34,131 nucleotides of DNA from an uncultured Methanosarcinaceae archaeon (GTDB lineage Archaea; Halobacteriota; Methanosarcinia; Methanosarcinales; Methanosarcinaceae), in assembly GCA_963721455.1 (NCBI GenBank), contig CAVRJG010000047.1, positions 1-34,131 on the forward strand. The letters run 5' to 3'. Shown piece after piece: positions 1 through 23,414 of the stretch. The position numbers and the translations under genes were made by a program. The notes under the pieces are model-generated. The model had not been told where the DNA came from. It saw only the letters and a program-made list of their open reading frames with translations, and ran no database searches. Every line of letters begins with the position of its first letter. Position 1 is the stretch's first letter.

Positions 1-1129
1 GAGTTTCTGAAAAAAAATTCGCCAACTGTTTATGAGATATTTGATAACATATCGATAAAGGAAAAGTCTTCCGATTACTTTGAGAAAACCGTTAATGGGA
101 TTTCAAACCTCATAATAATATCTATCGAGGCTGGCGATACTCCAGGAGATTTGTTGGATCTTCTGGTTGATCTTAAAGATAAGGATACAACAAAAGTGAG
201 GCCCAAGTGCGTGCTGACAACTGGCAGTGATGGGGAAGGAGATTTAGAAATTTCGGACTATGAACGAAGTGATCCTGTAGACGACGTACCCGGAAAGAGA
301 AAAGGTTTGACAGCATTTAAAGGAATTGAGGACATCTCAATCATTTATGCCCCAAACGCTTATTCGATCAACGGTCTTGTGGAGTTCCCTATCTCGCACT
401 GTGAAAGCCTCAGGTACCGTTTTGCAATTCTCGATGCTCCACAGCGGATCTTCAGATGTTTCCAATCTGGACCCGAGAAGTGAAGAACCCAACAGACTTT
501 GCAGCGTTCTATTACCCCTGGATCAAGGTAATCAACCCGGAAACCGGAATGCTTCAGCGTATGCCACCAGGCGGGTATGTTGCAGGCATTTACGCCCGCA
601 GTGATACTGAAAGGGGAGTGCATAAAGCTCCTGCAAACGAGATCGTTAAGGGAGCCTCGGACCTTGAGTTCCAGATCATGAAGGGAGAGCAGGATGTTTT
701 GAACCCGAGAGGCGTAAATGTCATCCGGGCATTTTCCGGGCAGGGGAATACGTGTATGGGGAGCCCGCACTACTTTCTTCCAACACTCTCTGGAAATATA
801 TCAACGTTCGCCGTCTCTTCATTTATATTGAGGCATCCATAGAAAAAGGAACCCAGTGGGTCGTGTTTGAACCCAACGACGACAGCCTCTGGGCAAGGGT
901 AAAGGCGACAATAACCCAGTTCCTGACAGGTGTCTGGAGAAGCGGGGCGCTCATGGGGACAACCCCGGAGGAAGCCTTTTTCGTAAAATGCGACAGGAGC
1001 ACGATGACCCAGGACGATATCGACAATGGAAGGCTGATCTGCATCATAGGAATAGCACCCGTGAAACCTGCGGAATTTGTGATCTTCAGGATAGCACAGT
1101 GGCAGGGTGGCTCTGCGGCTACGGAATAA
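1..1129 (+). pseudogene. Contractile tail sheath protein (Afp2/3/4, T4 gp18-like), 5'-truncated by the window edge and split by four +1 frameshifts (near 443, 478, 740, 772)
   Basis: Frame 1 is open from base 1. Joining successive frames gives the sheath motifs RFAILDAP, AAFYYPW, PPGGYVAGIYARSD..RGVHKAPAN, LNPRGVNVIRAF-GRGIRVWGART, WKYINVRRL, QWVVFEPND..LW and GIAPVKPAEFVIFRI. It may be intact in vivo if the indels are sequencing errors. Confidence 0.93.
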
Positions 1130-1251
1130 TTATCGAATATGATCGTTCAGAATAGGATATCCACGTAATCAACAATCTTTCAGCACATATGGTAAATCCT
1201 ACAATATTTTGGTATTATCAAAACAGGACTTTGTACAAAGGAGATTAAAAT

Positions 1252-1689
1252 ATGCCAGACAGAGTAGATCCTTATAGGACTTTCAGGTTCAGGGTTGAGA
1301 TTGACGATGTTGGACAGGCCGGATTCAGTGAATGTACCTTTGCGGACACATCGACTGAAGCCATTGACTACCGGGAAGGAAACGAGCCTCCCATATTTAG
1401 AAAACTTTCCGGCCTTACCAAATACGGGAATATTACCCTAAAATGGGGAATCACGGATTCAATGGACCTTTACAAATGGAGAAAACAGGTTATAGATACA
1501 GGAGCAGAGGGTGCAAGAAAAAACATGGCCATTATTCTGATTGATGAAGCCGGGAAAGATAAAGCTCGCTGGAATATTGTACATGCATGGCCGATAAAAT
1601 ATGACCCTACGGATTTCAATGCCAAAAATAATGATATTGGAATAGAAACGCTCGAAATAGCCCATGAAGGCTTTGCCAGAGCATCCTGA
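1252..1689 (+). CDS. Tail tube protein (T4 gp19-like, Afp1)
   Basis: Motifs DPYRTFRFRVEID, YREGN, RKLSGLTKYGNITLKWG, WPIKY and IETLEIAHEG; GGAG ribosome-binding site upstream. Confidence 0.95.
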   Translation: MPDRVDPYRTFRFRVEIDDVGQAGFSECTFADTSTEAIDYREGNEPPIFRKLSGLTKYGNITLKWGITDSMDLYKWRKQVIDTGAEGARKNMAIILIDEAGKDKARWNIVHAWPIKYDPTDFNAKNNDIGIETLEIAHEGFARAS

Positions 1690-1732
1690 AAAGAGATTCT
1701 TCTGAGAAGTTTCTCTTTTATTTTAGTTTTTT
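1689..1732 (+). terminator. Hairpin plus T-tract after the sheath-tube genes
   Basis: Imperfect inverted repeat AAAGAGAttCTTC-tga-GAAGttTCTCTTT followed by TATTTTAGTTTTTT. Confidence 0.55.
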
Positions 1733-1765
1733 AAAAAATAAGCTTCTTATTCAGAGATCGATAAT

Positions 1766-2131
1766 ATGATATTTCAAACGGAATTTGAGTTTATCCTCCC
1801 CAAAGGTTATGTGGACAATGAGGGAAACCTCCAAAAAAAAGGGATCATGAGACTTGCAACGGCTGCAGATGAGGTTCTGCCCCTGAAAGATCCGAGGGTG
1901 CAGGCAAACCCCCCCTATTTGACCGTAATCCTGCTTTCTAGAGTAGTAACAAAGCTTGGGAATTTGCCGATGATCGATACGAAAGTGGTCGAAAGTCTCT
2001 TTGCTTCGGACTTTGCATACCTGCAGGATTTTTACAACAGAATTAACGATAGCGGTAGTCCAAACCTCAGGGCAACCTGCCCTAAATGCGGCCATGATTT
2101 TGAGGGAGAACCATATTCTCAGGGGGAATAA
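1766..2131 (+). CDS. eCIS tail assembly chaperone-like protein (gpG/gpE-like) with C-terminal CPxC zinc finger
   Basis: Motifs FQTEFEFILPKGYVD, MRLATAADE, DFAYLQDFYNRIN and CPKCGH; lies directly after the tube gene as in eCIS loci. Confidence 0.8.
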   Translation: MIFQTEFEFILPKGYVDNEGNLQKKGIMRLATAADEVLPLKDPRVQANPPYLTVILLSRVVTKLGNLPMIDTKVVESLFASDFAYLQDFYNRINDSGSPNLRATCPKCGHDFEGEPYSQGE

Positions 2132-2313: not shown

Positions 2314-2325
2314 TGGGGGAACTGG

Positions 2326-2790
2326 ATGGGTAATGGTAGCTGGAAGAATTACTACACAGAAAAAATAATAGACCCTCTAATGTCTTTTCGGTTTAAGGTA
2401 GAAATATGCGGAATAATGACAGCACATGCTTCCGAAGTAACCGGACTTCAGATTGAGACCGAGACTGAAACATATGAAGAAGGAGGTGTCAATTATTTTG
2501 TTCATCATTTTCCTAAAAGAACAAAATATCAGAATATTACTCTGAAAAGGGGCATTACAGATCGAGATGAACTGTGGAGATGGTATCAGGAAGTAGTTAG
2601 TGGGGAATTTAAACGTGAAAACGTGGCAATTATATTGATGGATATCACTGGCGAAAAAGAAAAATGGCGCTGGAATTTTGAAGGGGCATATCCTGTAAAA
2701 TGGACAGGACCGGACTTTAAAGCTGATAGTAACACTGTAGCTTTTGAGACCATTGAACTCGTGCATAATGGAATAATCCAGAAGGGCTAA
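2326..2790 (+). CDS. Second tail tube-like protein (gp19-like, Afp5)
   Basis: Motifs DPLMSFRFKVEI, YEEGGVN, NITLKRG, AYPVKWTGPDF and AFETIELVHNG; paralogous to 1252..1689. Confidence 0.93.
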   Translation: MGNGSWKNYYTEKIIDPLMSFRFKVEICGIMTAHASEVTGLQIETETETYEEGGVNYFVHHFPKRTKYQNITLKRGITDRDELWRWYQEVVSGEFKRENVAIILMDITGEKEKWRWNFEGAYPVKWTGPDFKADSNTVAFETIELVHNGIIQKG

Positions 2791-2793
2791 AAA

Positions 2794-4950
2794 GTGGGTT
2801 TGTCTGGTATAAAACCTATAACTACTCTATCCAGTTCCAGTCTTTACCGAAAAATTATGCAAAAATATCAGACTGGTAAAAAGAATACTTCCAGGTTTCC
2901 TACAATGATTTTTTACAAAGAAAAAGGGTATTTTTTCCAAAAAAAAATTATTGATAAAAACCGGAAATGGAAAAAAATGGTTGTTAGTTATCCGTTTCTT
3001 GTGTATAATACAGCCAGTAACACTCCTAGAAGTTTTAAAAGCAAAATTAATTTTTTCCTTTCTTTTCACTTTCAAAAACAAAATCATAAGTTTTTTAATA
3101 TTCTCTGGAATCATCTGAATTTGGTATTAATTAAGCTGAAAACTAGCCTCTATCAATCAAAAATCGAGACAATAACAAAAAATTTCAAAAAGACCTTTTT
3201 GTTATCAATTACAGAGAGTAAAAATATCAATATTGATAAAAGAAAAAATACAAATAATGTAATAGAATTTTTTAAAAGCGGAATTCGAGTTCCTGATACT
3301 GTATTTATATTTAAAAAAACTTACATTCAAAAATCCTGTCTTTTTGAATGTAGATTTCTGAGATCTATTTCGGAATTGAGAATTTCCCGAATCGAAAACA
3401 ATATAAAAAGTAATATTGAAAGATTATCAAATAAAATAAAGAACTCAAATTTGTTATTTATTTTAAAAATACCTCAAAGTCTGTATTATCCGAAAGTTAC
3501 TGGGCATCTGAAAAATAGTAAGCTTTTAAAAAAGATTTACTTTCCAAAAGATACTATCCCTACAAGCAAGATAGATTTTATCAGGAGTGACTACACCTTA
3601 AGAGTTCTCGAAGTATTATCTAGTAAAAAAACTTTGCACAATCAAGATTTATTGAATAATGCAGGTAGTTTAAATAGTAGCGTCTTTTTAACTGGTATTG
3701 ACTATTGGAGTAACTCACGTTTTTTGAACACAGTACTACAGCTTCACGATATATTGTCCTCAAAAGCTTCCATCCATATATATTTACAAAATTTTGCGGA
3801 AAAACCTTTGAGAATGGATTTCTCGACTGCTAAAAAAATGACTGAACCTAAAATAGTTAATAGTAGTTGTTATTTCACTAAAAATTCCAAACTGTTGAAA
3901 GCGAACAAAATAAAAAATCCGGTTTTATTGTTTCCTATAAAAGTGCCTGAAAATATTCCAGACCAAATGCTATATGAGTTTTCAAAGAGTATACAGCTTT
4001 CGAAAAACTTACATTTTCTAATAGATAATATTTTTTTAAACAAGCAAGAATTTTTAAAAAATGTCTTTGCCTTAAAAATTTCAAACTCCTCAGCTATCAA
4101 GAATGACTTATACAGCAAATATTTCTTCAATCATTTCTTTAATCGGCATAGTACTTTAAATAGTAATGTCTTTTCGACTGGCATTTATCGTTTAGACAAT
4201 ATAAGTATTAGTAACACAGTGCGCCAGCTTCGCAATACATTTTTCTCAGAAGCTTTAAGCCAAGTAAATTCAAAAAATTTTTCAGAAAAATCTTTGAGAA
4301 TGGATTTCTCGATTGCTAAAAAAATGACCGAATTCAGAGTAACAGGTAATGAGCATTATTTCACTCAAAAGTCCAAAATGTTTAAAGCTCAAGGCTCGGA
4401 GAATGCTCATCCGGAATTTGAAAGCATAACAGCTTTTCCTTTCCGCCTTCCTAATTTATCTTTAGAGAATTTGATTTTTCTTGGGAGAAACACGCAATTT
4501 TCTTTTTTAATAAGCCAGAAGCCTACTATTGTAAAAAATAATCTTATACTGTCCCTCTCTGACCTTGAATTAAGAATTAAAGGAATAACACCTGTTTCTA
4601 TGAAAAAGGATTTGCCACTTTTTGCTTCAGGCAATGAAATTCCTGGTTTAGAACACAGCAAAAATCGTAATTTTCGGATAAACGGTGAGAACCTTGTTTT
4701 CCGTATGCAATCGGATATGGAACAAAGAATAGAAGAAAAAATTGAGCAAAAAATCAGGCAAAAGATTGAGCAGATAAAAAAAGCTTCAACTGATGTAAAA
4801 GAAGCATCTGTAAAACAATATCTTTCGGATTATTCAGCAACAAGAGAGTTTCAAAAACAGTTCTTAGACATAAATTACATTTCAGACCAAGTTTTCAGGT
4901 TAATGGATCATAGGCTGCAAATTGAACGTGAAAGAAGGGGTATTCTATAA
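2794..4950 (+). CDS. Long AT-rich eCIS-associated protein with an internal duplication; possible tape-measure or anchor protein
   Basis: 718-aa ORF coupled to the next gene (TAATG overlap). The C-terminal motif ISDQVFRLMDHRLQIERERRG is typical of eCIS loci; the rest is K/N/F/S-rich and unrecognisable. Confidence 0.65.
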   Translation: MGLSGIKPITTLSSSSLYRKIMQKYQTGKKNTSRFPTMIFYKEKGYFFQKKIIDKNRKWKKMVVSYPFLVYNTASNTPRSFKSKINFFLSFHFQKQNHKFFNILWNHLNLVLIKLKTSLYQSKIETITKNFKKTFLLSITESKNINIDKRKNTNNVIEFFKSGIRVPDTVFIFKKTYIQKSCLFECRFLRSISELRISRIENNIKSNIERLSNKIKNSNLLFILKIPQSLYYPKVTGHLKNSKLLKKIYFPKDTIPTSKIDFIRSDYTLRVLEVLSSKKTLHNQDLLNNAGSLNSSVFLTGIDYWSNSRFLNTVLQLHDILSSKASIHIYLQNFAEKPLRMDFSTAKKMTEPKIVNSSCYFTKNSKLLKANKIKNPVLLFPIKVPENIPDQMLYEFSKSIQLSKNLHFLIDNIFLNKQEFLKNVFALKISNSSAIKNDLYSKYFFNHFFNRHSTLNSNVFSTGIYRLDNISISNTVRQLRNTFFSEALSQVNSKNFSEKSLRMDFSIAKKMTEFRVTGNEHYFTQKSKMFKAQGSENAHPEFESITAFPFRLPNLSLENLIFLGRNTQFSFLISQKPTIVKNNLILSLSDLELRIKGITPVSMKKDLPLFASGNEIPGLEHSKNRNFRINGENLVFRMQSDMEQRIEEKIEQKIRQKIEQIKKASTDVKEASVKQYLSDYSATREFQKQFLDINYISDQVFRLMDHRLQIERERRGIL

Positions 4951-5594
4951 TGGCTGGAGAAATAAAAAAAAAAGGGTTTATTGAGATCTGTGGTGGAGAG
5001 AAGAAGGGTGAACAGATCGAAATACTCTATTACCCTACCGAGTATTCAATTGAAAAGAGCAACACTTTTTCGGAAATTTCTATCCCAGGGCTTGAGTCTC
5101 CATATCTTCAATATGTAAAGGGAAATGCCAGTACTATTTCCCTTGACGTTTTTTATGATACCTATGAAACTAATAAGGATGTTCGAGAATATTCGAATAA
5201 GCTGTCTAGTCTCATGGATATTGATCCTGACCTCCACGCTCCCCCTACTCTGCGCTTCATATGGGGCATGTTTTCTAAAGAATCATTTAACTGCGTCTTA
5301 GAGAGTGTAAATAAGAATTTCACTATGTTTAATAAGAGTGGAATTCCTGTTCGGGCAAAGCTCAAAATAAAATTAAAAGAGATAAAACTCGAGCTTAACG
5401 ATCGAGAAAGAAAACTTCAATCATCTGACAGAACGAAACTTTACATCGTAAAGCAAGGAGACAGTCTGTGGTATATTGCCTCCAAGGAATATGGAGATTC
5501 GGGGCTATGGAGACAAATCGCAGATGCAAATAACATTTATGACCCTAAAAAGCTTAAGTCGGGAACTGAACTGGTCATTCCTCCCCTGGAGTAA
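4950..5594 (+). CDS. Tube-initiator / CIS tube domain protein with C-terminal LysM (Afp7-like)
   Basis: YPTEYSIEKSN, HAPPTLRFIWG and GIPVRAKL, then the LysM motif YIVKQGDSLWYIASKEYGD..LWRQIADANNI. Confidence 0.9.
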   Translation: MAGEIKKKGFIEICGGEKKGEQIEILYYPTEYSIEKSNTFSEISIPGLESPYLQYVKGNASTISLDVFYDTYETNKDVREYSNKLSSLMDIDPDLHAPPTLRFIWGMFSKESFNCVLESVNKNFTMFNKSGIPVRAKLKIKLKEIKLELNDRERKLQSSDRTKLYIVKQGDSLWYIASKEYGDSGLWRQIADANNIYDPKKLKSGTELVIPPLE

Positions 5595-5596
5595 TT

Positions 5597-6658
5597 ATGG
5601 AAAATAAGATTTCTGCAGCTGAAATATATGCCCCGGCTTTTTCGGTACAGCTTGGCAACAAAACGATTCCAAAGAGTGAAATAACCGGAATTAAAATTGA
5701 AGAGGATCTGGAAAAACCTGGGATATGTACTATTTCCTTTAATGAATTTCTTGATCCTAATTCTCAGAGATTTAAATGGCTGGACAATGAAAGTATTGCT
5801 CCGGGAACAGATATTTTGATTAATTTTGGATATGTTTCTTCAAAAGCTAAGGGGGTATTTAGAGGCAAAATTAAAGCTCTTGAGCCGTCTTTCGCATTAG
5901 GTGGAGTTTTAACCCTAGATGTGCAAGGATTTGACCTTTCCCATGAGCTTCAAAAAACACAAAATAAGGTGATCTCAAATGATTTGACCTATCAGGATGT
6001 TGCCAGGGAGCTAGCCGGAAAAAACAGCCTCACTTTTTCAGAAGATGGCACCGGCAAGCCGATAACTCATCAAAAGGCCAAGCGAAGAGTTGATGAGAAT
6101 GACTATGAATTTTTGAAAAGGCTTGCAGGAGATATAGGGTTTGAGTTTTTTGTAAGAAATACTACTCTATATTTTCGGAAACCTCAGGATGATAAGGTTC
6201 CAGCGTTTAGTTTTGAATTACATAACAACATAATTAGTTTTAGTCCGAGAATGAGTATTGCAAGTGTTGTAAGTAAAGTAACGGTTACAGGCTGGAACGA
6301 GGAAAAAATGTCTATTTCAGAAACTGCTGAAATCAATGAAATTAAAAGCAGTTTTGGAGTTCCAGATTTTGAACAAATAGTTAAACAGGCAAAAATTGCA
6401 ACGAAAGAGGAAGGGAAGGTTGTGCGTTCCACAGAAGAAGCAAAGGAAATTGCTCTTTCGGAATTAAAGAGAAAAAACAGCAATCTTATTACAGGAACGC
6501 TGGAATGCGTTGGAAACGAAGTCCTCAGACCTGGAATGACTGTGAATATAGAAAAAGTTGGGAAGCGCTTCAATGGGCGTTATTACATTACAGGGACAAC
6601 ACAAACATTCGGAGATAATGGGTATCGGACTACACTCAAAATTAGAAGGTGCTTATAA
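5597..6658 (+). CDS. Phage late control D / gp27-like baseplate hub (N-terminal half of VgrG)
   Basis: ENDYEFLKRLA..IGFEFFV, VTVTGWN and GNEVLRPGMTVNIEKVGKRFNGRYYIT. Confidence 0.9.
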   Translation: MENKISAAEIYAPAFSVQLGNKTIPKSEITGIKIEEDLEKPGICTISFNEFLDPNSQRFKWLDNESIAPGTDILINFGYVSSKAKGVFRGKIKALEPSFALGGVLTLDVQGFDLSHELQKTQNKVISNDLTYQDVARELAGKNSLTFSEDGTGKPITHQKAKRRVDENDYEFLKRLAGDIGFEFFVRNTTLYFRKPQDDKVPAFSFELHNNIISFSPRMSIASVVSKVTVTGWNEEKMSISETAEINEIKSSFGVPDFEQIVKQAKIATKEEGKVVRSTEEAKEIALSELKRKNSNLITGTLECVGNEVLRPGMTVNIEKVGKRFNGRYYITGTTQTFGDNGYRTTLKIRRCL

Positions 6659-7464: not shown

Positions 7465-7476
7465 GAGGATATCAAA

Positions 7477-7770
7477 ATGCCACCAGCAGCCAGAGTAGGA
7501 GATTTAACAAGTCATGGGACTCCTCTTGGTCCAGGTCCTGGAAGTGTCAACGTATTAATCGGGGGAATGCCCGCATGGAGAGCAGCAGTAGATACTCATA
7601 CATGTCCTCTAGTTACTGGAGTTGTGCCACATGTAGGAGGGGTCGTTGCCTTAGGAAGCGTCACAGTTCTAATTAACAACCTCCCTGCGGCACGCCTGGG
7701 TGATACAATAGTTGAGAGCGGACCACCCAATACTATTGCAATGGGCTGCCCAACTGTACTGATTGGTTAA
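7477..7770 (+). CDS. PAAR spike-tip protein
   Basis: MPPAARVGD, HTCP...PH and VLINNLPAARLGD motifs. Confidence 0.95.
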   Translation: MPPAARVGDLTSHGTPLGPGPGSVNVLIGGMPAWRAAVDTHTCPLVTGVVPHVGGVVALGSVTVLINNLPAARLGDTIVESGPPNTIAMGCPTVLIG

Positions 7771-8218: not shown

Positions 8219-8236
8219 TTAAATGGAGGAATTATA

Positions 8237-8626: not shown

Positions 8627-8630
8627 CCAG

Positions 8631-12599: not shown

Positions 12600-12601
12600 A
12601 T

Positions 12602-15164: not shown

Positions 15165-17439
15165 TTACAAACGAATTAATTCTCAAAAACTCTTTGAAGA
15201 TTTTAAGGTTTATGAAAAAAACCTGAGTATGAATTCAGGGGACTTAAGGATAAATAGAGGTTATGTTTACAATCAAGTGAATGATGTTTTCAAGGGTATT
15301 ACTGTAATTGATATGGCTATAGACAGATGTGGTACACTTTATCTCATAGGCCAGGTACAGATAGACAATGAACAAATAAACAACGAGCAACAAAAAAAGG
15401 AACAACTGGACAATAAACAAAACCCGGAACAAAATTTGTACAAATTTCATGCGAATGAAAAAATCCTGGAAAAAATCGGAAGCGCTGAGAAAACCTTTTC
15501 ATTAGCATTGAAAAATATTTCCGCAATCGGGGTAGATAAGGATACGATATATATTGCAGATTACGTTTCTGGAGATTCAAATAATCAAACCAAAATAGAT
15601 GCCGCCCGCCTTATTGCCCTTACAAAAAGTGATCTACAAATTCGCTGGATTCTTTCAACAGGTCCTGATGGAAGATCTTTAAATAAAATTCATACAATTC
15701 AATGTGATAATCGGGAGAAAATCTATGTTCTTGAAGGAAACGAGAAAAGAATACTTTACATAAATACTGGTGATATTTGTTATCCGGCTTTCCGCTTATT
15801 TGACTTAACTTTTAAGCTAGAAAAGGGGGACTTTACACAGAACCTCTTTCTAGGTGTTGATGGCTCTCTTTATGTTCTGGTTGTAAATGCAGTGAAAAAT
15901 GAGAATACGGTAAGTGGGCCAAAAGGATATGTTTTAAAAGTTCGGTCGACAAAAAAAGAAAAATCGGTTGAAATGATCGGACCTAAAATTAGTGATTTCT
16001 CACCTTCAGGAATTGCAGTTGATACCAGGAATCAGATCTTCATAGGTGGATCTAAAACCGGTAGCCAATTACCAATTATCAAACTTTCAAATAATGCAGA
16101 TGCCTGGGAATCACTAACAACTTACAAAGTTACAAATGGGACTTCTTTAGGAGCAAGCCGAAAATTAATAAGTGATTCAAAAGGAAATCTTTACGTTATT
16201 AATTATGAAGATAAATTGACACTTCTGGATCGTAAAGAATTAAACATTCAGGGTGAGAATGGTTACGAAGGGACTTATATATCAAAGCCTATTGACAGCC
16301 AGATTTCCGATACTCACTGGCACAGGCTATTGCTGGGAGGGGAATTCGAGAAAGGTACTCAGGTTGACTTTCAGTATTTTGTTTCAAATAATAAGGATGA
16401 AGGACCTAAAGACTCCGATTCTAAAAAATGGCACAACTGCGTTTCGAAAGCCTCTGCAATTCAGGGTAATAATAAAAGAGATGCCCTTTTTATAGAAAAT
16501 ACCAAGGGGCGATATCTCTGGTTTAAACTTATCCTTTCAGGTAATGAAATACTATCTCCTGTAATCAACTCTGTTACTGTGTTTTTCCCTAGAATCTCAT
16601 ACCTTGATTATCTTCCTGGCATCTATCAGGAAGATTCTGCAAGCAAGGGATTGCTTGAACGTTTTCTTGCGATATTCGAAAGCATATTCTATGAGATTGA
16701 TTTTACTATTGACCACATAAGCCGGTATTTTGATACCTCTGGAGCGCCCCCTGAGTTTTTATCCTGGCTCGGTTCATGGCTTGATGTATCCATAGATGAG
16801 GATTGGCCGGAGGATAAAAAAAGACTTTTTATCAGGAATGCTATCTCACTGTATAAGAAAAGGGGCACAAGAGAATGCCTGGAGGAGAGCATTGAACTTT
16901 TTACAGGGAAAAAACCATTTGTTGTTGAGAATTTTCAGGCGGCTAAAGCATGTAAAGGCAATATTTCTCAACCCTGCAATAACGGGAAAACAGTCTCTTT
17001 TCCTTCTCAAGAAAGGATATTTTTCCCACCTAAGGGAATTATGGTGGAAGAATGTCCTGAAAAAAACACTGCCGGAAATAAAGGTAAGGAAGAACCAGGC
17101 AAGGAAGAGCCTTTAATAAACAAGCTTTATGGAACTGAAAGGTTTGGTTTCTGCGTGCTACTGGCGGACCCTGATCTCGATACAACTGCTCAAAGCCGTG
17201 TTAGAAGAATAATTGAGGAACAGAAGCCTGCCCATACCAGCTATGAGCTAAAGGTGCTCGAACCATGGTTTCACCTGGATATGCATACATATCTTGGAAT
17301 CAATACTGTGGTTACAGAGCCTAAATTTGTTCTGGAAAAGACATCTATGATAGGTAGGGACACAGTCCTCCATGATGAAGAGAAGGCAGGGCAAGTTGAC
17401 AGACATTCAAGAGTAGGAATCGATATTCTACTTTCTTAA
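15142..17439 (+). CDS. Phage tail protein: N-terminal beta-propeller-like region plus P2 gpI-like baseplate domain
   Basis: Propeller-like strands (IAVD...IFIG, LYVI) and C-terminal YLPGIYQED..LERFLAIFE, APPEFLSWLGSWL, LYKKRGT, IIEEQKPAHT. Start uncertain (GTG 15142 or ATT 15151). Confidence 0.88.
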   Translation: MTAIPESNYKRINSQKLFEDFKVYEKNLSMNSGDLRINRGYVYNQVNDVFKGITVIDMAIDRCGTLYLIGQVQIDNEQINNEQQKKEQLDNKQNPEQNLYKFHANEKILEKIGSAEKTFSLALKNISAIGVDKDTIYIADYVSGDSNNQTKIDAARLIALTKSDLQIRWILSTGPDGRSLNKIHTIQCDNREKIYVLEGNEKRILYINTGDICYPAFRLFDLTFKLEKGDFTQNLFLGVDGSLYVLVVNAVKNENTVSGPKGYVLKVRSTKKEKSVEMIGPKISDFSPSGIAVDTRNQIFIGGSKTGSQLPIIKLSNNADAWESLTTYKVTNGTSLGASRKLISDSKGNLYVINYEDKLTLLDRKELNIQGENGYEGTYISKPIDSQISDTHWHRLLLGGEFEKGTQVDFQYFVSNNKDEGPKDSDSKKWHNCVSKASAIQGNNKRDALFIENTKGRYLWFKLILSGNEILSPVINSVTVFFPRISYLDYLPGIYQEDSASKGLLERFLAIFESIFYEIDFTIDHISRYFDTSGAPPEFLSWLGSWLDVSIDEDWPEDKKRLFIRNAISLYKKRGTRECLEESIELFTGKKPFVVENFQAAKACKGNISQPCNNGKTVSFPSQERIFFPPKGIMVEECPEKNTAGNKGKEEPGKEEPLINKLYGTERFGFCVLLADPDLDTTAQSRVRRIIEEQKPAHTSYELKVLEPWFHLDMHTYLGINTVVTEPKFVLEKTSMIGRDTVLHDEEKAGQVDRHSRVGIDILLS

Positions 17440-18467
17440 AGCGTTATTCAGGCAGATTAATTCAAAATAATCTTTTTACAAACCCGAATCATTCAATCTT
17501 TTTTAAATCATAGTACTTTTTATAAATTTATGTTAACTTTTGTAAATTTTAAACATTAAAGATATCCTCATAAATCTGTATATTTTTGATTATAGGATAA
17601 TAACAATTGACTTAAAAATCTAGCCAAAAGATGTTGATTTTTCGATTTTTTTCCAAAAAAGCAGTCAAGAATTGTCTACATTGAAAAACGTTTGCTGCCC
17701 GGATGAAGGTTAAAGGAAATTGATATTAATTTAAAGATTAGAGGATGTGAAAAGTATGCCAGATAGTGACCAGAATATAAACAATTGCAACTTTCATAAG
17801 TTTGAAAAAAATAAATACTTTTATGGAAAGCTGATGACTGTCAGGGATTTTGAAACCGAGCAGCGGTATTTTGACGAAAAACGCAATCTTATTAACAGGC
17901 TGCTTCACGGTACTGGAATAGTATGTGGTTTTCAGAATGTAAAGTTAGTAAAAAAGGACAATGAACCACTCAAATTGAATTTTGAGGATGGAGGGGTAGC
18001 TCTTACCTGCTGCGGGCATGAAATAGTTGTCCTTTCCAATACAGACAAACAAATTTTAGATGAAACTGGTAACAAGGTTTCGGACTTATCCAACTCCCCG
18101 TATCTTTATTTAAAGTATAAACCCTATGATTGCGGTTATGTTGCTGTGGCTTCAAATTCTTCAAGTTGTGAAGAAAAGTGTTGTCCGGGGCGGGTTATTG
18201 ACGACTTTGAAGTTGTGGCGGCTAAAGAGTCACCCAATTCAGGAATAAATTGTAATGATCAATCCAAACTATGCAGGTGTTTAACCGATCTTGAAAATAA
18301 TAAAAAGAGTCTGTCCGGCATGTGGGGAAAATCAAAAAGACAGAGTTTTCCTTGGAATAGTTGAAAACGACGTCTCTGTTACACAGAAAGAACCTGAAAA
18401 ACACAGGATTTTTTTTACACCGAAAGAGCTGTATCAGATTTTTAAATGCCATAGTCTGGACTTCGAG

Positions 18468-18915
18468 AATCCGCATAAAGTTACCGCTCTCCAGGCAGGC
18501 GCACTTGAAAAACTGGATGGAGTTTTAAATCTGAATGGAAATATCGACCTTATCCAAAACGGATCAATTGTAATTACTGCCTAACGGAAGTGAAAGGTCT
18601 ATAACTATAGGAGAGACTCATTCCGAGAAAATGAATAATCCACATAAAGTTACCGCTCTCCAGGCAGGCGCACTTGAAAAACTGGATGGGGTTTTAAATC
18701 TCAATGGAAATATCGACCTTATCCAAAACGGATCAATTGTAATTACTCACGAAAGTGAAAACTCTATAACTATAGGAGAGACTCATTCCGAGAAAATCGA
18801 CAATCCACATAAGGTTACGGCTTTCCAGACCGGCGCACTTGTAAGTCTGGATGGGGTTAGCAATCCCGGAGGAGATATAGACCTGATTGAAGGCACGAAT
18901 ATAAAAATAACTCAT
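18468..18915 (+). repeat. Three ~55-aa NPHKVTA repeats; the first two are nearly identical in DNA
   Basis: Units start at 18468, 18637 and 18802 (offsets 169 and 165 bp). Confidence 0.9.
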
Positions 18916-19134
18916 GATAATAACTCCATAAAACTTGACTGTACTCTAGGGTTAGAGGTCCAACCTGCTGAAGCTGAGCCAAAGAGTGTAGGCATTAACA
19001 ATGTGGTTGGCACTTCAACCAGATATGCTCGTGAAGACCACGAACATAAGCTTGAAGAGAATTTTGTGGATTACACCAGACTCTCTGTAGACCTTCAGAA
19101 ACAGCTCGACGTTCTCAATGTGTACCTGAGAGAA

Positions 19135-20500
19135 AGAGCTCTGAAATGCTCCGTAAGCAGTTTCAAAAAAGTGGAAGAAGAGTTTAAAAATAACAGATCG
19201 CTTGGGATCTCACTGCTTTTCAAAAAAGCAGTCCGGGAAAAATTGTATGAAAAAGAAAACGATTTCATCGACTTCATGATGAACGTACTGGGTCAAATTA
19301 ATGCATTTAAAGAAGAAGTCAAATCCCAGGCTGAGGAAGGAAGCTTCAAAGACTTCGATGACGCTCTTGAAGACCTCAAGAAGGCTCTTCTAGGAGATAC
19401 CCCCCTCAAAGTTGCTGCACAGCAGGATGAAGTCTGTTTCTACGCTCTGGAACTCAAACGTAATGTCAATGAGCCCATGTTCAGAGCACTGAATTGTACT
19501 GTGATTAACTTTAGAAAAGTTGCCGATGATTTCAAAAGCGAGACCGCGAACAGAATTTCATTGAAGTTTGAAGAAGGCATCAGCAGCAAGGTGTATGAGA
19601 ACGAAGAAGCGTTCATAAAATTCATGACAGTAAATCATCAATTGCTTAAAAATTTGCCAGACGAGATAAAAGAAAATACCATTGAAGAAACCCTTACTAA
19701 TTATGTTTCGGCTGTAGATGGGCTTGTGGAAGTAATAGAATCAAACGATGCTCTTAGCATTGCTACCATGCAGGAAGAAGTCTGCTCTGCTGCTAAGGGA
19801 CTGGAGCCTATCAGCCAGAACCCGATGTATAGAGCACTGAAATGTACTGTGAGCAGCTTTAGAGATATTTACGAGAGGTTTGACAGCGATGTTGCCAATA
19901 AAATTTCAGAGGAATTCGAAGAAGCTCTCAAGAATAAAATGTATGATGATGAGAATGCGTTCATACAATTCATGAAGGAGAACCTTGGGTTCCTTAATGA
20001 TCTGCTTCCAGATGAAGTAAAATATACCGCTATTGATAAGGATCTTACTAATTATGTTGCAGTTGTAACAGAGCTCACAGACATAATCGAATCAAATAAA
20101 GCTCTCGAAATTGCTGCCAAACAGGAGGAACTCTGTTACTTTGCCCGTGAACTCAGACGTGCCACCTCCTTATACAGAGCCCTTAGATGCACTGCGGTTA
20201 ACTTTGTAGAAGTTGCTGATAAATTCGAAAACAAAACCGCCAAGAAAATTTCAGAGGACTTCGAAAAAGCCGTAGATAACGAAGTGTATGAGGATGAAAA
20301 TGAATTCATAAATTTCATGAAAGAAAATTTCGAATCATTTGGAACCTTTGAAAGAGAAATAAGAGACCTTGCTACTAAAGAAACTTTCCACGATTACATT
20401 ACAGCTGTAAGAAGGCTGGAAGAGGTAATTGAATCCGGAAACACTCCCACGATTGCTGCCAGGCAGGAAGAAGTCTGTTCGTCTTCCAAGCAACTTGAAG
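19135..20500 (+). repeat. Four ~116-aa acidic helical repeats
   Basis: RALxC..xxFxxV...F...IS..F...YExExxFIxFM...IAxxQEEVC units start at 19135, 19483, 19831 and 20176. Confidence 0.9.
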
Positions 20501-20588
20501 TGCATCTGATTGCCTAATTTTTGATTTGAGCCAAAATTACTCAAAACAATTTTTACTCAACTGTTGAATCTTCAGAAGGAGTTTAATT

Positions 20589-23414
20589 ATGTCTGAACAT
20601 CAGCAAACGCAGCAGTCCAAAAAACCGGAGTCTTCTTCTCAAAAACAAATAACTCCCCTAAGCCAGACTCCTGTATCAAATCCAGCGTCTATTATCCAGC
20701 GTGCCAGAATAGATCCAAAATCCCTCACCCATGCTGATGTAATGCAGCTTCAGCAAACCATCGGAAACAGGGCAGTCGGCAGGCTACTTTCAAGTATCAG
20801 AAACCCTTCAAAGGTTCAAAAGATGCCGATTCAGCGGCAAAAGCTGGAGGAAGAAGAAACATGCCCTTCATGCGTGCAGAGACAGGAAATTCCAGAGGAA
20901 GAGGAACCTATTCAAGGCAAATTTGAAAGTAAACTGGAAGCAAGGAAGACATGTTCGAATTCCTGCAAGCAAAACGTAGGCTTCAATTCTTCAGGACCTA
21001 CTGCTGATATGATACTGCAACTTCAGAGAACTGCAGGCAATCAGGCAGTTCAGAGGCTGATTAAATCACGAGCCTTACAGGCTAAACTCAGAATTGGCCA
21101 GCCTAACGATGTATATGAACAAGAAGCTGACAGAGTAGCGGAGCAAGTAATGAGGATGCCTGAGCCGCAGGTTTCAAATGAAACAAAAGCTCCTAAAAAG
21201 GCGACAGCTAATCTCGTTCAGCTTAAGTGTCCAGAGTGCAGACTAGAAGAGGAAGAAGAGAAAAAAACTCTCCAGGCTAAGGAAATTTCTGGCTCAACTC
21301 CCAAAGTCACACCTGAACTGGAATCACGCATCAGTGCAATCCGTGGTGGTGGCCAGCTTCTGCCTGATTCTACGCGCGCTTTCTTTGAGCCGCGATTCGG
21401 GCATGATTTCAGCGGAGTGAGGGTGCATTCTGGTGCAGCTGCCGTACAATCGGCACGAGATGTAAACGCCCGTGCATACACAGTGGGGAGCGACATTGTG
21501 TTTGGTGCAGGGCAGCTTACACCGGGGACACACGAAGGACGGCGGTTGATTGCTCATGAGTTGACGCATGTGGTACAGCAGAGCCAGGGCGGTCTGCCAC
21601 CAGTAGCGCCGAGAGTAACGCACGAGGCCGATGCCGCAAGGGCTCCCGAGGCATCGGTGAGCGGTGGGACACTGGTCCAGATATCGGCTGCTACCGGCGT
21701 TGAATTGACGCGTGACGAGGATCCTGAGGTGGAAAAGGCCCTCGGCGGGCTCAAGGAACAGGAGGTCCCTTCAGGGCAGCCGGCAAAGCCGGCCGCGCAA
21801 GATGCTTTGACCACGGATGAGCTGATCGACGAGCATGTCTTTGGGCCACGCATCCACGAGGAGGTGGGGGATCTGCGTAAACGGCTGGCTAACCAGGAGG
21901 CTAGGTTGAAGGTGAATCCAAAGGACAAAGCGTTACAGGCAAAAGTGACCGAGATGCGAGCTCGGTTGCGTGTCCTCGAGGGCCGCGGACTTGACCCCAG
22001 CGCACGTGGGGCTAATGTGCCGGGTGTTGGTAGTATCAATACGCGGGCCGCAATTCAGGTGATCGGCCCCGACGGTAAGATCATCGCAATCGAACGCGGG
22101 AGTTGGGGTCCAACTCACCACGCCGAGGGGGACGCACTCGCCAAACTGCGCAGTCGTCTGGGCACACAGAAGCTTCCCGAGGGTACGCACATTATGATTG
22201 CCGGCAACCAGGTAGTTTGTGGCAAGGTCTGCAAGCCCGATATCGCTCGTTTTGCGAAGGACTACGGCGTTCCCCTGGAGAATGTTAACGCCAGTGTGAG
22301 AACACGTCCAAAAATGGTCGGTCAGGGACAGGCTAGTAGTAAGACAACCGAGTTTACGGGCTTGCGAGGCGACGTGCCGAAAGCAACGGTCAAGACCGAA
22401 CCGCTCTTCCACGGTGACAAAGAACCGGCGGCACCTGCCAAGCTGCCACTAGAAGGTGCTCCATCAGCAGAAGGATACAAAAAGGTTGTTTCAAATCAAC
22501 CTCCTTCGCCTGAAGAGCCTATTGTCCAAAAACCCAGTCCTACAGAATTTAAAGTTAATACCCAATACAGAGTTCTCAATGTTGATCAAATCCCTGGTGG
22601 AAGGGTCGTCTCGGAAGTTGAAGTGGTATTTAGCGAAGGATTGGAACAGACGAACCAAGCTGTAAAAGTCCACGGTGGGAAACCTTTTCCTTCTCGTCTA
22701 ATCTTGCATATTACTACGGACTCTAATGGTGCTCTGGTCGCTGCCGAGATGACATCAGGAGAAGCAGCAGGTCTAGCTGAAACTCTAGCGCGCCAGGCTC
22801 TGTCGTCTGCGCCTCGCGGAGCAACCGGGGCTGAGGCTGGAGCGGTTGCAGCATCAAGGGGAGTATCCCCTTGGGTGCGTGGAATCGGATGGGCTGGTAT
22901 GGCGCTTTTTGTCGTTCTAACAGCTTGCAGATATTCTCAGGCATCTCCTGAGGAAAAGCCTAAAGTTTTAGCGACTGCTGGAGGTGGTCTCGCAGGTGGA
23001 ATGGTGACTGGATATGTTGCATGCAACCTCATTCTAGGTATTGAAACATTAGGTTGGTCTCTTTTGATATGTGGCTTTGTAGCAGGAATACCTGGTGGGA
23101 TTGCTGGTGAAGCAATTGGAGAGACAGCCTATGAAGCAACTATCGATGATGATAAAATCCGAGATTGGGTTTCAGCAAACGATCTGGCTTTGATTAAACG
23201 ATTACCGGTCTCTGAGAAGGTTCGCATGATACTCAGCCTAATGAAGGGTTGGATCAGTGATGCCGATATAGCAGCTATCGAGCGTATTTGCCTTAGCGTC
23301 GCAAACAGAGCAGAGATGGTCAATATTCGTCGTGAAGTGGAACCCCATATTTTAGATATGACCAGTATCGGCCAGCGTACTCGAGTGCGGGTAACTCTTG
23401 CTCGAAATCTATGA
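20589..23414 (+). CDS. DUF4157 (eCIS core) cargo/effector with a putative zinc-deaminase-like domain and C-terminal hydrophobic glycine-rich helices
   Basis: Leader motifs QLQxTxGNxAVxRL (twice); DUF4157 motifs EQEADRVAEQVM, FFEPRFGHDFSGVRVH, ARAYTVGSDIVF, LIAHELTHVVQQ; then HAE (22119) ... VCGKVC (22218-22232) and hydrophobic GxxxG helices. Confidence 0.88.
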   Translation: MSEHQQTQQSKKPESSSQKQITPLSQTPVSNPASIIQRARIDPKSLTHADVMQLQQTIGNRAVGRLLSSIRNPSKVQKMPIQRQKLEEEETCPSCVQRQEIPEEEEPIQGKFESKLEARKTCSNSCKQNVGFNSSGPTADMILQLQRTAGNQAVQRLIKSRALQAKLRIGQPNDVYEQEADRVAEQVMRMPEPQVSNETKAPKKATANLVQLKCPECRLEEEEEKKTLQAKEISGSTPKVTPELESRISAIRGGGQLLPDSTRAFFEPRFGHDFSGVRVHSGAAAVQSARDVNARAYTVGSDIVFGAGQLTPGTHEGRRLIAHELTHVVQQSQGGLPPVAPRVTHEADAARAPEASVSGGTLVQISAATGVELTRDEDPEVEKALGGLKEQEVPSGQPAKPAAQDALTTDELIDEHVFGPRIHEEVGDLRKRLANQEARLKVNPKDKALQAKVTEMRARLRVLEGRGLDPSARGANVPGVGSINTRAAIQVIGPDGKIIAIERGSWGPTHHAEGDALAKLRSRLGTQKLPEGTHIMIAGNQVVCGKVCKPDIARFAKDYGVPLENVNASVRTRPKMVGQGQASSKTTEFTGLRGDVPKATVKTEPLFHGDKEPAAPAKLPLEGAPSAEGYKKVVSNQPPSPEEPIVQKPSPTEFKVNTQYRVLNVDQIPGGRVVSEVEVVFSEGLEQTNQAVKVHGGKPFPSRLILHITTDSNGALVAAEMTSGEAAGLAETLARQALSSAPRGATGAEAGAVAASRGVSPWVRGIGWAGMALFVVLTACRYSQASPEEKPKVLATAGGGLAGGMVTGYVACNLILGIETLGWSLLICGFVAGIPGGIAGEAIGETAYEATIDDDKIRDWVSANDLALIKRLPVSEKVRMILSLMKGWISDADIAAIERICLSVANRAEMVNIRREVEPHILDMTSIGQRTRVRVTLARNL

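Follow-up and report, generated by a model that had tools for sequence, protein, structure and literature searches.

The window, the whole stretch of 34,131 nucleotides analysed here, very probably contains the greater part of a gene cluster for a contractile injection system (CIS), assignable to the Afp/PVC-like 'PLTS/eCIS' class, on a Methanosarcina chromosome, in a copy that is incomplete as assembled and has its sheath, second baseplate gene and fibre out of frame. The cluster consists of genuine phage-tail-like injection-system genes with a toxin-like cargo gene; clusters of this kind have been catalogued in methanogens before, and relatives have intact copies. Such clusters are in print for Methanosarcinales and ANME archaea (PMC4122934, PMC9012536, PMC12180501), in the portions of these papers relied on here without experiments, and the relevant part of the discussion in PMC11566945 agrees with the original prediction that methanogen examples are uncharacterised. 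As the contig end truncates the copy and three essential genes are out of frame, the cluster is perhaps dead or merely badly sequenced.

The window is the entire contig C47 and opens inside the sheath gene, some 160 codons past its start. As seen by Pfam and PHROGs searches, positions 1-23414 contain, co-oriented on the plus strand throughout, every gene class named by the original prediction: sheath, two tubes, a chaperone-like protein, LysM tube initiator, split VgrG, PAAR, gp25, Baseplate-J (two genes), gpI-like protein, fibre and the DUF4157 (eCIS_core) cargo, besides a tape-measure-like protein (Table 1). That list was right in its classes, the cargo gene included, but overlooked the contig start within the sheath, the frame breaks in sheath, second baseplate gene and fibre, and the missing cap region. 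The gene order is the same as in the intact loci of relatives (given G and L codes below), which runs ATPase, Pvc16_N cap, CarboxypepD_reg-like protein, sheath, tube, 121-aa protein, tube, TMP, LysM, VgrG, PAAR, gp25, two BaseplateJ proteins, gpI, fibre and DUF4157. The closest named relative is a Methanosarcina sp. UBA5 MAG, with 73-93% amino-acid identity for five genes. The tube gene was found in 28 of the family's 151 genomes (counting this one) and in 6 of 16 genera; within the genus, 12 of the other 34 genomes have it.

Table 1. Features of the window and the evidence for each assignment.
Feature	Coordinates	Strand	Evidence
Tail sheath gene	1..1129	+	PF04984 (2.3e-12) and PF17482 (2.8e-21) on two pieces; 5' part missing
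Tube protein 1 (gp19/Afp1-like)	1252..1689	+	PF06841 4.2e-45
121-aa conserved protein, chaperone-like	1766..2131	+	PHROGs phrog_508 tail assembly chaperone, 5.3e-5
Tube protein 2 (gp19/Afp5-like)	2326..2790	+	PF06841 6.5e-46
718-aa protein, putative tape-measure/length-determining	2794..4950	+	Position, conserved ends; GC 0.30
LysM tube initiator (Afp7/Cis7-like)	4950..5594	+	PF19266 CIS_tube 1.6e-28; LysM 6.7e-10
VgrG N-part (gpD-like hub)	5597..6658	+	YQBQ 2.2e-7; phrog_52 9.8e-30 and baseplate hub families
VgrG C-part (gpV OB fold and repeats)	6649..7464	+	PF04717 Phage_base_V 4.6e-27
PAAR spike tip	7477..7770	+	PF05488 5.8e-17
gp25-like baseplate wedge	8237..8626	+	PF04965 1.2e-25
Baseplate-J-like protein 1 (Afp11/Cis11-like), 1322 aa, intact	8631..12599	+	PF04865 3.4e-19
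Baseplate-J-like protein 2, one broken gene	12602..15164	+	Baseplate_J 2.1e-4; ORFs in relatives
P2 gpI-like baseplate protein (Afp12-like), 765 aa, intact	15142..17439	+	PF09684 Tail_P2_I 7e-10
Tail fibre gene, one gene in three frames	17747..20517	+	Single ORFs in relatives; PHROGs on L037 homologue
Cargo/effector candidate, 941 aa	20589..23414	+	PF13699 eCIS_core/DUF4157 5.5e-33
IS element: 139-aa ORF and DDE transposase	23527..25066	+	PF01609; directly 3' of cargo gene
Second IS transposase (DDE)	25689..26699	+	PF01609, PF13546

Regarding the tube, protein 1 is 90% identical to those of G092 and G078, and its nearest solved tubes are 7B5H, 9R9H and 7ADZ. The 121-aa gene sits between both tube genes in all six relatives examined, including G078, G062, G104, G092 and G138, the counterpart in the last being a 106-aa ORF. 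The 718-aa protein matched no family in Pfam and PHROGs searches; its conservation with the same-position proteins of relatives (394-1249 aa) is confined to the N- and C-termini, and it is taken as a putative tape measure from its position and these conserved ends.

In the spike, the N-part of VgrG gave a Phage_GPD match (4.1e-5) that falls under the family cut-off; G062, G138, G078, G092, L037 and H. borinquense likewise have it as an ORF of its own, and in G104 it is fused. Both VgrG ORFs share 10 nt, with an identical overlap in G062, G138 and G092, and the C-part carries a 78-nt tandem repeat (3.1 copies, 7132-7373). The PAAR protein is 93-95% identical to those of L037 and G104. The gp25 gene likely starts at the ATT at 8237, located 7 nt downstream of GGAGG; the first canonical start is the GTG at 8300, the 21 codons preceding it are conserved, and the homologues of G062, G104 and G092 have ATG where the window, L037 and L038 have ATT, ATT and ATC, respectively. 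Baseplate-J-like protein 1 shows 81% identity to L037 over 1342 columns, its nearest solved structure being 9GTP (E 9.1e-50), and the gpI-like protein shows 73% identity to L037 and 71% to L038.

Upstream, a DUF4255 cap and an AAA+ ATPase had been proposed as the genes to look for. The ATPase was found on another contig (C48:1444-3618, minus strand; 724 aa, 79% identity to G078) and carries a WHD domain, but the cap gene is absent from the assembly, together with one neighbouring gene and the sheath N-terminus. A Pvc16_N/DUF4255 profile search gave no match in the genome (in relatives this family reaches 4.8e-41 and 1.4e-40), and tblastn of four relatives' caps against the genome found nothing. 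Past the ATPase, C48 carries Trm5/TYW2, DUF6141, CMD, DUF2124, methenyl-H4MPT cyclohydrolase and peptidase U32 genes, and the genome has just one copy of the CTP synthase that lies downstream of the cluster. No tRNA genes were found in the window. Both ORFs of the IS element that follows the cargo gene occur on at least nine other contigs (76-100% identity), and the second IS transposase has copies on ten others (81-99.7%). The 139-aa ORF, being the first ORF of this multi-copy element, is not an immunity gene.

The cargo protein begins with a region common to other cargo genes, its N-terminal 97-131 aa being 66-77% identical to those of G078, G104 and L037, followed by DUF4157 (aa 258-334, with HELTH), a helical linker, a GC-rich deaminase-fold domain (about aa 480-575; HAE, C-x3-C) and a C-terminal part with hydrophobic segments. 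The mean GC of the contig is 0.39, and positions 21300-22400, in the cargo gene, reach 0.56-0.66. The H, A, E, C and C of the deaminase-fold domain are invariant in 11 of 11 aligned sequences (ten homologues and the window). An AlphaFold model of aa 400-640, built on an alignment of just 11 sequences, has a mean pLDDT of 69 and core blocks of 86-93. The best Foldseek matches of this model are all deaminases (DddB 1.2e-3, CDD1 1.5e-3), and the top 30 VIA-align entries are all cytidine-deaminase-fold proteins, led by 1JTK (Z 11.2, rmsd 2.8 A, 104 residues). Pfam also recognises a Pput_2613-like deaminase domain in the second cargo gene of a relative (9.3e-23). Against the deaminase reading, the hhalign comparison of the window's domain with that Pput_2613 domain gives a probability of 0.6%, and the window's domain matched no Pfam deaminase family, nor any other Pfam family. 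Considering the modelled fold and its HAE/C-x3-C zinc site, the toxic act of the effector is likely the deamination of a nucleic acid base.

Judged from the homology of its parts, an intact cluster would assemble a baseplate from gp25, both Baseplate-J proteins and the gpI-like protein around the split VgrG-PAAR spike, with the LysM initiator seeding a tube of two gp19-type proteins whose length the tape-measure-like protein would set. A single sheath protein would wrap the tube, the cap would close it and the AAA+ ATPase would aid assembly; the repeat-rich fibre would bind the target, and sheath contraction would then drive the spike and the DUF4157-tagged effector into it. A defective prophage tail module, or a tailocin killing by puncture without cargo, would also have phage-tail homologues for every structural gene, and the upstream part of the cluster is incompletely assembled; nevertheless, this origin is nearly refuted and very improbable. 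As the original prediction had it, capsid, portal, terminase and integrase families matched 0 of 27 window ORFs in a Pfam scan, and these head, packaging and integration families were likewise not matched by the 19 ORFs of C48:1-18614 on the ATPase contig. Moreover, the AAA+ ATPase (here with its WHD), DUF4157 and the relatives' Pvc16_N cap are eCIS-type cluster markers in the cited part of PMC8213781, and chromosomal housekeeping genes flank the cluster on either side. The predicted methanogen eCIS thus stands as a Methanosarcina-type, non-prophage contractile injection cluster, but its 'extracellular' nature is an assumption only, because the solved sheath nearest to the intact G092 homologue is 9EZM (E 1.6e-143), followed by 8BKY (3.8e-116) and 8BL4 (2.7e-113). 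According to the sections of PMC11566945 used here, 9EZM is the H. borinquense T6SS sheath, from a membrane-anchored haloarchaeal system, and 8BKY the cytoplasmic S. coelicolor CIS; in the same sections, H. borinquense DUF4157 proteins are secreted in a sheath-dependent manner and two are toxic. Like the Methanosarcina locus, that cluster has a split VgrG, a pair of baseplate genes and DUF4157 genes, and no lysis gene is evident among the window ORFs (Pfam scan). A system anchored in the cell and fired outward on contact as in the haloarchaeal T6SS, or cytoplasmic as in Streptomyces, instead of a released particle, is a minority possibility. Against it, in Methanosarcina clusters the gpI-like gene is immediately followed by a gene for a fibre that can reach about 1000 aa, whereas none is listed there in the H. 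borinquense annotation, and the structural proteins have no hydrophobic segments save a marginal one in PAAR. In addition, the likely haloarchaeal anchor (a 388-aa protein that lies upstream of the H. borinquense cluster and has six hydrophobic segments) gave no match at E<=1 when compared by tblastn with this genome and seven relatives' loci, a weak test with a single query.

Inactivating mutations, which the original prediction counted against a working particle, appear in the assembled sequence as seven frame breaks over three essential genes (sheath four, second baseplate gene one, fibre two), each of these genes being one unbroken ORF in 3-6 relatives; as the cause of the breaks, recent real inactivation and sequencing error stand at roughly even odds, error being slightly ahead. 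If the frame shifts, cap-region loss and flanking IS elements are real, the strain makes no particle and its orphan cargo genes are decaying too, a reading given somewhat less than an even chance. It is favoured by breaks in two orphan DUF4157 genes on C45 and C43, one deep within a 147-kb contig, by 134 of 154 conserved G078 ORFs matching the genome as a single unbroken stretch (>=90% coverage; two other break candidates look like antisense shadow ORFs), by the IS copies directly 3' of the cargo gene and a repeat element, present more than 40 times, directly 3' of the ATPase stop, and by the absence of cap, neighbour and sheath N-terminus from a genome rated 98.5% complete. However, the smallest contig kept in the assembly has 3028 bases, so a cap-bearing piece of about 2.5 kb could simply have been dropped. 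The sheath passes through frames 1 (1-444), 2 (446-484), 3 (486-731), 1 (733-771) and 2 (773-1129) in three-frame translation, i.e. four net +1 shifts; the DNA alignment to G092 and G078 places extra bases near 445, 486, 732 and 772 that are absent from the relatives' contigs. Several points lean towards error: the four sheath shifts are packed into 330 nt, under 800 nt away from a contig end that falls in unique sequence, and eight contigs of the assembly contain foreign stretches of 60-69% GC, for the most part at their ends, while C19 has a palindromic chimera. Read through with X at every break, the sheath aligns over its full length to five intact sheaths; of the 165 positions at which these relatives do not vary, it has a unique change at 2, against 2-30 for the relatives themselves. 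The second baseplate gene shifts once, near 14066, from frame 2 (12602-14065) to frame 3 (14067-15164), with 25 extra bases, an A5 run among them, relative to L037 and L038; single ORFs match both halves in L037 (847 aa), L038 (855), G092 (667), G062 (679) and G138 (539), and its unique changes are 4 of 232 (relatives 11-65). Amino-acid change is not in excess in either gene, and drift is not expected to leave four neutral indels in 330 nt while substitutions stay nearly absent. Nine of the ten CIS-related shifts are net +1, whereas a bias towards deletions is typical of prokaryotic pseudogenes.

The fibre lies in three pieces, 17747-18253 (frame 2), 18312-18575 (frame 3) and 18595-20514 (frame 1), all matched by single ORFs of L037 (1003 aa), L038 (at least 964 aa) and G138 (543 aa); the intact L037:12477-15488 matches phrog_8147, tail fibre (2.9e-16). 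Its first break falls inside a 58-nt stretch that could not be aligned. At the second break, 4 inserted nucleotides create a TAA within copy one of a recent tandem duplication of 165 nt; substitutions lie next to the insertion, which makes this lesion mutation-like and unlike a simple base-call error. A wider screen with 238 queries flagged about 20 non-CIS places, mainly repeat proteins, with apparent real indels in a sulfatase (+1, +2, -1) and close to the end of an M20 peptidase (+1), so the breaks are enriched in CIS genes and not exclusive to them.

The contractile injection system (CIS) locus in the window is real and belongs to a kind already known from archaea; it is either in poor condition or badly assembled, and its most original element is the cargo domain. 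The original prediction was an archaeal extracellular CIS (eCIS) with a DUF4157 cargo, and every gene class that it listed was found with Pfam and PHROGs, all co-oriented, at 1-23414. The sheath, 5'-truncated and with four frame shifts as assembled, matches PF04984 and PF17482 in Pfam and aligns to five intact sheaths. Pfam also recovered two gp19-type tube genes (PF06841, 4.2e-45 and 6.5e-46), a tube initiator with PF19266 (CIS_tube) and LysM, and the spike families Phage_base_V (PF04717; VgrG, Afp8) and PAAR (PF05488); the N-terminal part of VgrG matches hub families in PHROGs. Regarding the baseplate, gp25 (PF04965), Baseplate_J (PF04865; Afp11) and Tail_P2_I (PF09684; gpI-like, Afp12) were matched in Pfam, the Baseplate_J domain lying in a 1322-aa protein and, weakly, in a 368-aa piece. 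In PHROGs, a 121-aa protein has a tail-assembly-chaperone match and an intact homologue of the fibre has a tail-fibre family match, and the cargo gene carries eCIS_core (the former DUF4157; PF13699, 5.5e-33) with HELTH at aa 322-326. A 718-aa protein of 30% GC, encoded between tube 2 and the LysM gene, gave no family match; only its two ends are shared with the 394-1249-aa proteins at the equivalent position in relatives, and we infer a length-determining protein. The C-terminal part of VgrG contains a 78-nt (26-codon) tandem repeat, in 3.1 copies with 85% matches, whose units are presumably turns of the spike β-helix.

The window is contig C47 in its entirety (34,131 bases), from a genome of 3.94 Mb in 73 contigs. 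The closest named relative of the cluster genes is the Methanosarcina sp. UBA5 metagenome-assembled genome (MAG; L037), to which PAAR is 93% identical at the amino-acid level, gp25 90%, the large Baseplate-J protein 81% and the gpI-like protein 73%. The predicted absence of prophage genes also stood, as Pfam found no capsid, portal, terminase or integrase among the 27 window ORFs. Capsid, portal and terminase were likewise missing from the 19 ORFs searched on C48, a contig of the same genome that lies across an unassembled gap from the window.

The cargo, of 941 aa, begins with a leader bearing two LQxTxGNxAV-like motifs, followed by eCIS_core with HELTH, a helical stretch, a conserved domain, a proline-rich linker and a C-terminal part with hydrophobic segments. 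Over its first 97-131 residues, it matches cargo genes of L037 and of two same-family relatives' genomes, G078 and G104, at 66-77% identity, and the downstream parts differ; the cargos thus form a modular set in which one leader is combined with different toxin domains, that of the window being a deaminase-fold domain that no described family includes. With aa 400-640 as query, ten other proteins were found, 50-88% identical, seven of them with PF13699 in precomputed annotation, and H-A-E together with two cysteines (C-x3-C) is invariant in all 11 aligned sequences. These correspond to the zinc-site motifs of the cytidine-deaminase-like superfamily (HAE, and two Cys opening the next helix). 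In the AlphaFold model (mean pLDDT 69), the core is β-β-α-β-α-β and the motif residues start two helices, 113-125 and 149-159. The best Foldseek matches are deaminases, with a probability of 0.99 and weak E-values from 1.2e-3, and VIA-align gave Z 11.2 and an rmsd of 2.8 Å over 104 residues to 1JTK (Bacillus subtilis cytidine deaminase), its top 30 entries all having the cytidine-deaminase fold. Family searches with aa 338-941 against Pfam at E<=5 and with the C-terminus (aa 640-941) gave no match, a profile of the 11 sequences found no deaminase among solved structures, and hhalign of the cargo domain with the PF14427 domain gave a probability of 0.6%; PF14427, the Pput_2613-like deaminase domain, is present in the second cargo of L037. 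We read the domain as a putative toxin deaminase of a family outside the described ones, with a predicted activity.

Polymorphic-toxin deaminases (DddB/DddA-type dsDNA deaminases; Pput_2613-like PF14427) have the same fold, H-A-E and two cysteines opening the next helix, and likewise a multidomain secreted-toxin architecture with the domain behind a trafficking domain. However, the window cargo differs from them in having no Pfam deaminase match, in its C-x3-C spacing and in the position of the domain in mid-protein, with about 300 residues after it. The composition of the gene is also uneven, as one part of the ORF, spanning DUF4157, the linker and the deaminase-fold domain, has 56-66% GC against 39% in the contig. 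Because no stop interrupts the ORF at either composition change and its architecture is common to homologues, this part looks like acquired DNA and not like a chimera. A doubtful, tentative proposal is that an undescribed toxin-deaminase family (HAE ... C-x3-C) came from a GC-richer donor by recombination and was fused behind a Methanosarcina-type leader and DUF4157; if true, a methanogen CIS would deliver a nucleic-acid-editing enzyme. No immunity gene is evident, since an insertion sequence (IS) follows the cargo stop at 113 nt. The 139-aa ORF after the cargo was considered for that role and rejected, being the first ORF of a multi-copy IS.

Upstream of the window, the original prediction had asked for an ATPase and a cap; the ATPase was found, on C48, and the cap had no match in the genome. 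As the ATPase gene is on the minus strand of C48, the low end of this contig faces the window start, and the genes past the ATPase are chromosomal and not phage: Trm5/TYW2, DUF6141, CMD, DUF2124, MCH (methenyl-H4MPT cyclohydrolase) and peptidase U32. The order in relatives is ATPase, Pvc16_N cap, CarboxypepD_reg-like protein and sheath, and the expected position of the cap is the unassembled gap between C48 and C47. The cap family (DUF4255/Pvc16_N, PF14065) scores 4.8e-41 and 1.4e-40 in relatives, and it has no match anywhere in this genome; tblastn over the whole genome at E<=1 gave no match to four relatives' caps, to four relatives' cap-neighbour proteins or to two sheath N-termini. Since the smallest contig kept in the assembly has 3028 bases, a piece of ~2.5 kb with the cap region could have been discarded, and the region may be either deleted or merely unassembled, neither being favoured.

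Immediately past the ATPase stop, C48 carries a 120-nt repeat, present in more than 40 copies across the genome, and beyond it ~1.2 kb of 64-71% GC, of which positions 1-330 encode the end of a CoA-transferase III. The repeat is MITE-like, with inverted ends and copies 70-99% identical, and it also lies inside the CIS clusters of relatives. No overlaps of the ends of C47 and C48 with other contig ends were detected, and the first 40 nt of the window do not represent a repeat terminus. Downstream of the cargo, the IS (139-aa ORF and DDE transposase), a second IS transposase and a DUF7524 gene form a module that recurs at the far end of C48, with proteins 97.6-99.7% identical; the CIS region is therefore bracketed by direct copies. 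Stretches of 60-69% GC joined to Methanosarcina sequence of 40% GC occur in C48 and seven other contigs, mostly at contig ends, and the one in C19 has reverse-complement copies of the same sequence on both flanks, forming a palindromic chimera. These stretches have the appearance of contaminant DNA in chimeric joins and not of gene transfer.

Coordinates of features in the window, in other contigs of the same genome (C) and in relatives' loci (L037, L038, G078)
Feature	Location	Strand	Remarks
AAA+ ATPase (Afp15-like), 724 aa	C48:1444-3618	minus	WHD and AAA domains; 79% identical to the ATPase of the G078 cluster
Orphan DUF4157-type cargo gene	C45:about 115,500-117,106	minus	broken at a leader motif, between LQQ and TIGNRAV
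Orphan DUF4157-type cargo gene	C43:about 7090-7976, contig end	minus	broken at least twice
60-69% GC stretch	C48:1-1236		
60-69% GC stretch	C8:792-14653		
60-69% GC stretch	C17:58054-end		
60-69% GC stretch	C19:132937-143536		
60-69% GC stretch	C33:1-22051		
60-69% GC stretch	C44, both ends		
60-69% GC stretch	C54:about 400-7498		
~120-nt repeat	C48:about 1286-1405		
~120-nt repeat	L037:17373-17493		
~120-nt repeat	G078, C15 stretch 12447-12570		
IS/DUF7524 module	window 23527-28021		
IS/DUF7524 module	C48:28188-33788	minus	
VgrG 78-nt tandem repeat	window 7132-7373		
gp25 N-terminus	window 8219-8300		
gp25 N-terminus	L037:about 3040-3110		
gp25 N-terminus	L038:1-110		
~80-aa units of second baseplate gene	window 13400-14400		
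GC-rich part of cargo ORF	window 21300-22400		
Sulfatase gene	C28:17529-18574		
M20 peptidase gene	C28:21340-22864		

Seven frame breaks were counted in the window copy. In the sheath, extra bases lie near 445, 486, 732 and 772 in comparison with the relatives G092 (82% DNA identity) and G078 (80%), so that the frame order is 1, 2, 3, 1, 2; the contigs of relatives in public runs do not have these bases. The second baseplate gene is a single ORF in L037 (847 aa), in the related MAG L038 (855) and in the relatives G092 (667), G062 (679) and G138 (539), and in the window it passes from frame 2 to 3 at 14062-14076, where 25 extra bases include an A5 run. This gene contains tandem ~80-aa units (...KFGNGKKGL.P..G...), more than in G062, G092 and G138, and its break falls at the boundary of one unit. 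The fibre, a single ORF in L037 (1003 aa), L038 (at least 964) and G138 (543), is spread over frames 2, 3 and 1; its first break is inside 58 unalignable bases, and the second results from 4 inserted nt that create TAA, with substitutions close by, in the first copy of a recent tandem duplication of 165 nt. Two orphan DUF4157 genes that have the leader in common with the window cargo (61% over 72-80 residues) are also frame-broken, on C45 near 116,940 (+1) and on C43 (-1 and +1).

Two other candidate lesions were rejected. The split ORFs of VgrG and their 10-nt overlap are common to G062, G138 and G092, and the gene is also split in G078, L037 and Halogeometricum borinquense. The "lost start" of gp25 is a non-ATG common to the window, L037 and L038, with conserved codons around the start. 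In these three loci there is no ATG, GTG or TTG at the conserved N-terminus, and conservation extends over the 21 codons preceding the first canonical start; GGAGG stands 7 nt before ATT (window, L037) or ATC (L038), where G062, G104 and G092 have ATG, and this ATT/ATC is a candidate near-cognate start codon.

The frame breaks could be errors, which we rate slightly better than even, or a real recent inactivation, a serious contender somewhat short of even, with a small remainder left to a mixture of both. A first control speaks for inactivation: among ORFs of 120 aa or longer in 289 kb of G078 sequence, 154 found a best match in the genome of the window at 70% identity or above, and 134 of them (37,787 aa) were matched as one stretch with at least 90% coverage. 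Among the 20 remaining, two with neighbouring matches in different frames were inspected and look like antisense shadow ORFs; the sheath is a third case with neighbouring matches in different frames. The breaks in both orphan DUF4157 genes point in the same direction. Against inactivation, the sheath read through with X is uniquely changed at 2 of 165 positions that are invariant in five relatives, compared to 2, 7, 5, 7 and 30 in those relatives, and the baseplate gene read through has 4 unique changes in 232, compared to 15, 11, 65 and 33. Four neutral indels inside 330 nt without excess substitutions fit drift poorly, and nine of the ten CIS-related shifts are net +1, whereas prokaryotic pseudogenes are known for a deletion bias. 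Moreover, the sheath breaks lie less than 800 nt from a contig end that does not coincide with a repeat, and the assembly is demonstrably chimeric in places.

The breaks are not exclusive to CIS genes, an idea rejected when a wider and more sensitive screen found other genes affected. Its queries were 326 ORFs of 150 aa or longer, taken from five relatives; 238 had a best match at 40% identity or above, and 31 places were flagged, about 20 outside CIS genes; most of the latter are in TPR, PKD/β-propeller, HEAT, S-layer or GAF/PAS proteins, and neighbouring repeats in repeat proteins can mimic a frame shift. At the DNA level, two genes of contig C28, 82-90% identical to their G078 orthologues, have small indels relative to these, a sulfatase with +1, +2 and -1 and an M20 peptidase with +1 about 25 codons before its end; breaks are thus enriched in CIS genes, yet also occur elsewhere. 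A wilder reading would take insertion-biased breaks, largely in CIS genes, as a real targeted or mutator process and not as drift or error. None of the public sequencing runs searched contains the window stretch (best share of words, 0.06), and the four runs compared hold only relatives, at 85-95% likeness, so that they report the relatives' state at the shift sites and leave the reality of the shifts aside. Contigs of one of these runs, an RNA library, span portions of the relatives' sheath, tube and 121-aa genes and cannot count as expression evidence. Metagenome contigs were also searched for two exact strings of the window, one close to the 732/772 shifts and one following the 14066 shift, with 0 stretches for each. 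Counts of "eCIS-positive" genomes from domain hits alone would score such a frame-broken, cap-less copy as present.

Afp/PVC-like clusters ("PLTS") are reported in 35 archaea, including Methanomethylovorans hollandica, with Baseplate J coming from two genes in Archaea, in the accessible text of PMC4122934; that of PMC8213781 counts 19 archaeal genomes with eCIS operons and defines DUF4157 as an eCIS core domain with a link to toxins, and those of PMC9012536 and PMC12180501 give PLTS clusters in every ANME group and in 10 of the 21 Methanovorans genomes. The methanogen and ANME clusters are called unexplored in the accessible part of a 2024 haloarchaeal paper (PMC11566945). As far as the accessible text of these sources goes, the Methanosarcinales/ANME clusters (M. 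hollandica Metho_1612-1628, PMC4122934; PMC9012536; PMC12180501) belong to the same host order, are known from genomes only and share sheath, tubes, LysM, VgrG, PAAR, gp25, two Baseplate-J genes, gpI-like protein and AAA+ ATPase. In comparison with them, the window is cut by the contig end, has no cap in the assembly and bears the seven breaks; the alignments of the window covered same-family genomes and two MAGs.

The classical eCISs, Afp of Serratia entomophila (6RAO) and PVC of Photorhabdus (6J0B), have counterparts of all core parts of the Methanosarcina-type cluster (Afp1/5, 2-4, 7, 8, 9, 10, 11, 12, 13, 15 and 16), with the toxin gene likewise at the 3' end, and their structures are matched by the sheath at E 1e-47 to 1e-57 and by the tube at about 1e-9. 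However, the Methanosarcina type has a single sheath gene where they have three, ATPase and cap in front and not at the end, a tape-measure-like gene between tube 2 and the LysM gene, a split VgrG and an archaeal host, and Afp/PVC sequences are far more distant from it than the haloarchaeal and Streptomyces systems. The G092 sheath, which is intact and 92% identical to the window sheath over the last 118 residues, has as best solved structure 9EZM (haloarchaeal), followed by the cytoplasmic Streptomyces CIS, and is 46.5% identical to the H. borinquense sheath.

In the accessible text of PMC11566945, the only experimentally studied archaeal system is the haloarchaeal, membrane-bound T6SS with DUF4157 toxins. 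The H. borinquense T6SS (pHBOR03; PMC11566945) likewise has a split VgrG, PAAR, gp25, two baseplate genes and a gpI-like protein; it also carries a DUF4255 cap, an AAA+ ATPase and DUF4157 effectors, of which the cap had no match in the genome of the window. Its order differs, with the baseplate module first, an 8.7-kb spacer, and cap and ATPase on the other strand, and no fibre gene is annotated after the gpI-like gene, where Methanosarcina clusters have a large one. For a probable six-helix anchor upstream of the H. borinquense cluster (Hbor_38620 homologue; 388 aa, six hydrophobic segments), tblastn at E<=1 with one low-sensitivity query, picked by description only, gave no match in the genome of the window or in seven relatives' loci, which is not evidence against anchoring. 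The Methanosarcina system may act as a released particle or in an anchored, T6SS-like mode; a fibre gene is present, and the nearest characterised relatives are not extracellular. Because the large fibre gene sets the Methanosarcina clusters apart from the haloarchaeal T6SS, fibre presence may serve as a testable predictor of mode.

To our knowledge, nobody has demonstrated a role for methanogen CISs, although they have been seen in genomes for a decade, and this locus alone, incomplete and possibly dead, adds little on that role. Intact copies are present in the relatives G092, G062, G104 and G138 and in the Methanosarcina sp. UBA5 MAG. In a plasmid-collection search with a Methanosarcina-type sheath, the best match was a replicon of Paenibacillus cellulosilyticus (60% identity), ahead of haloarchaeal plasmids at 46-48%, which fits the idea that archaeal and Firmicute clusters reportedly have a common origin.
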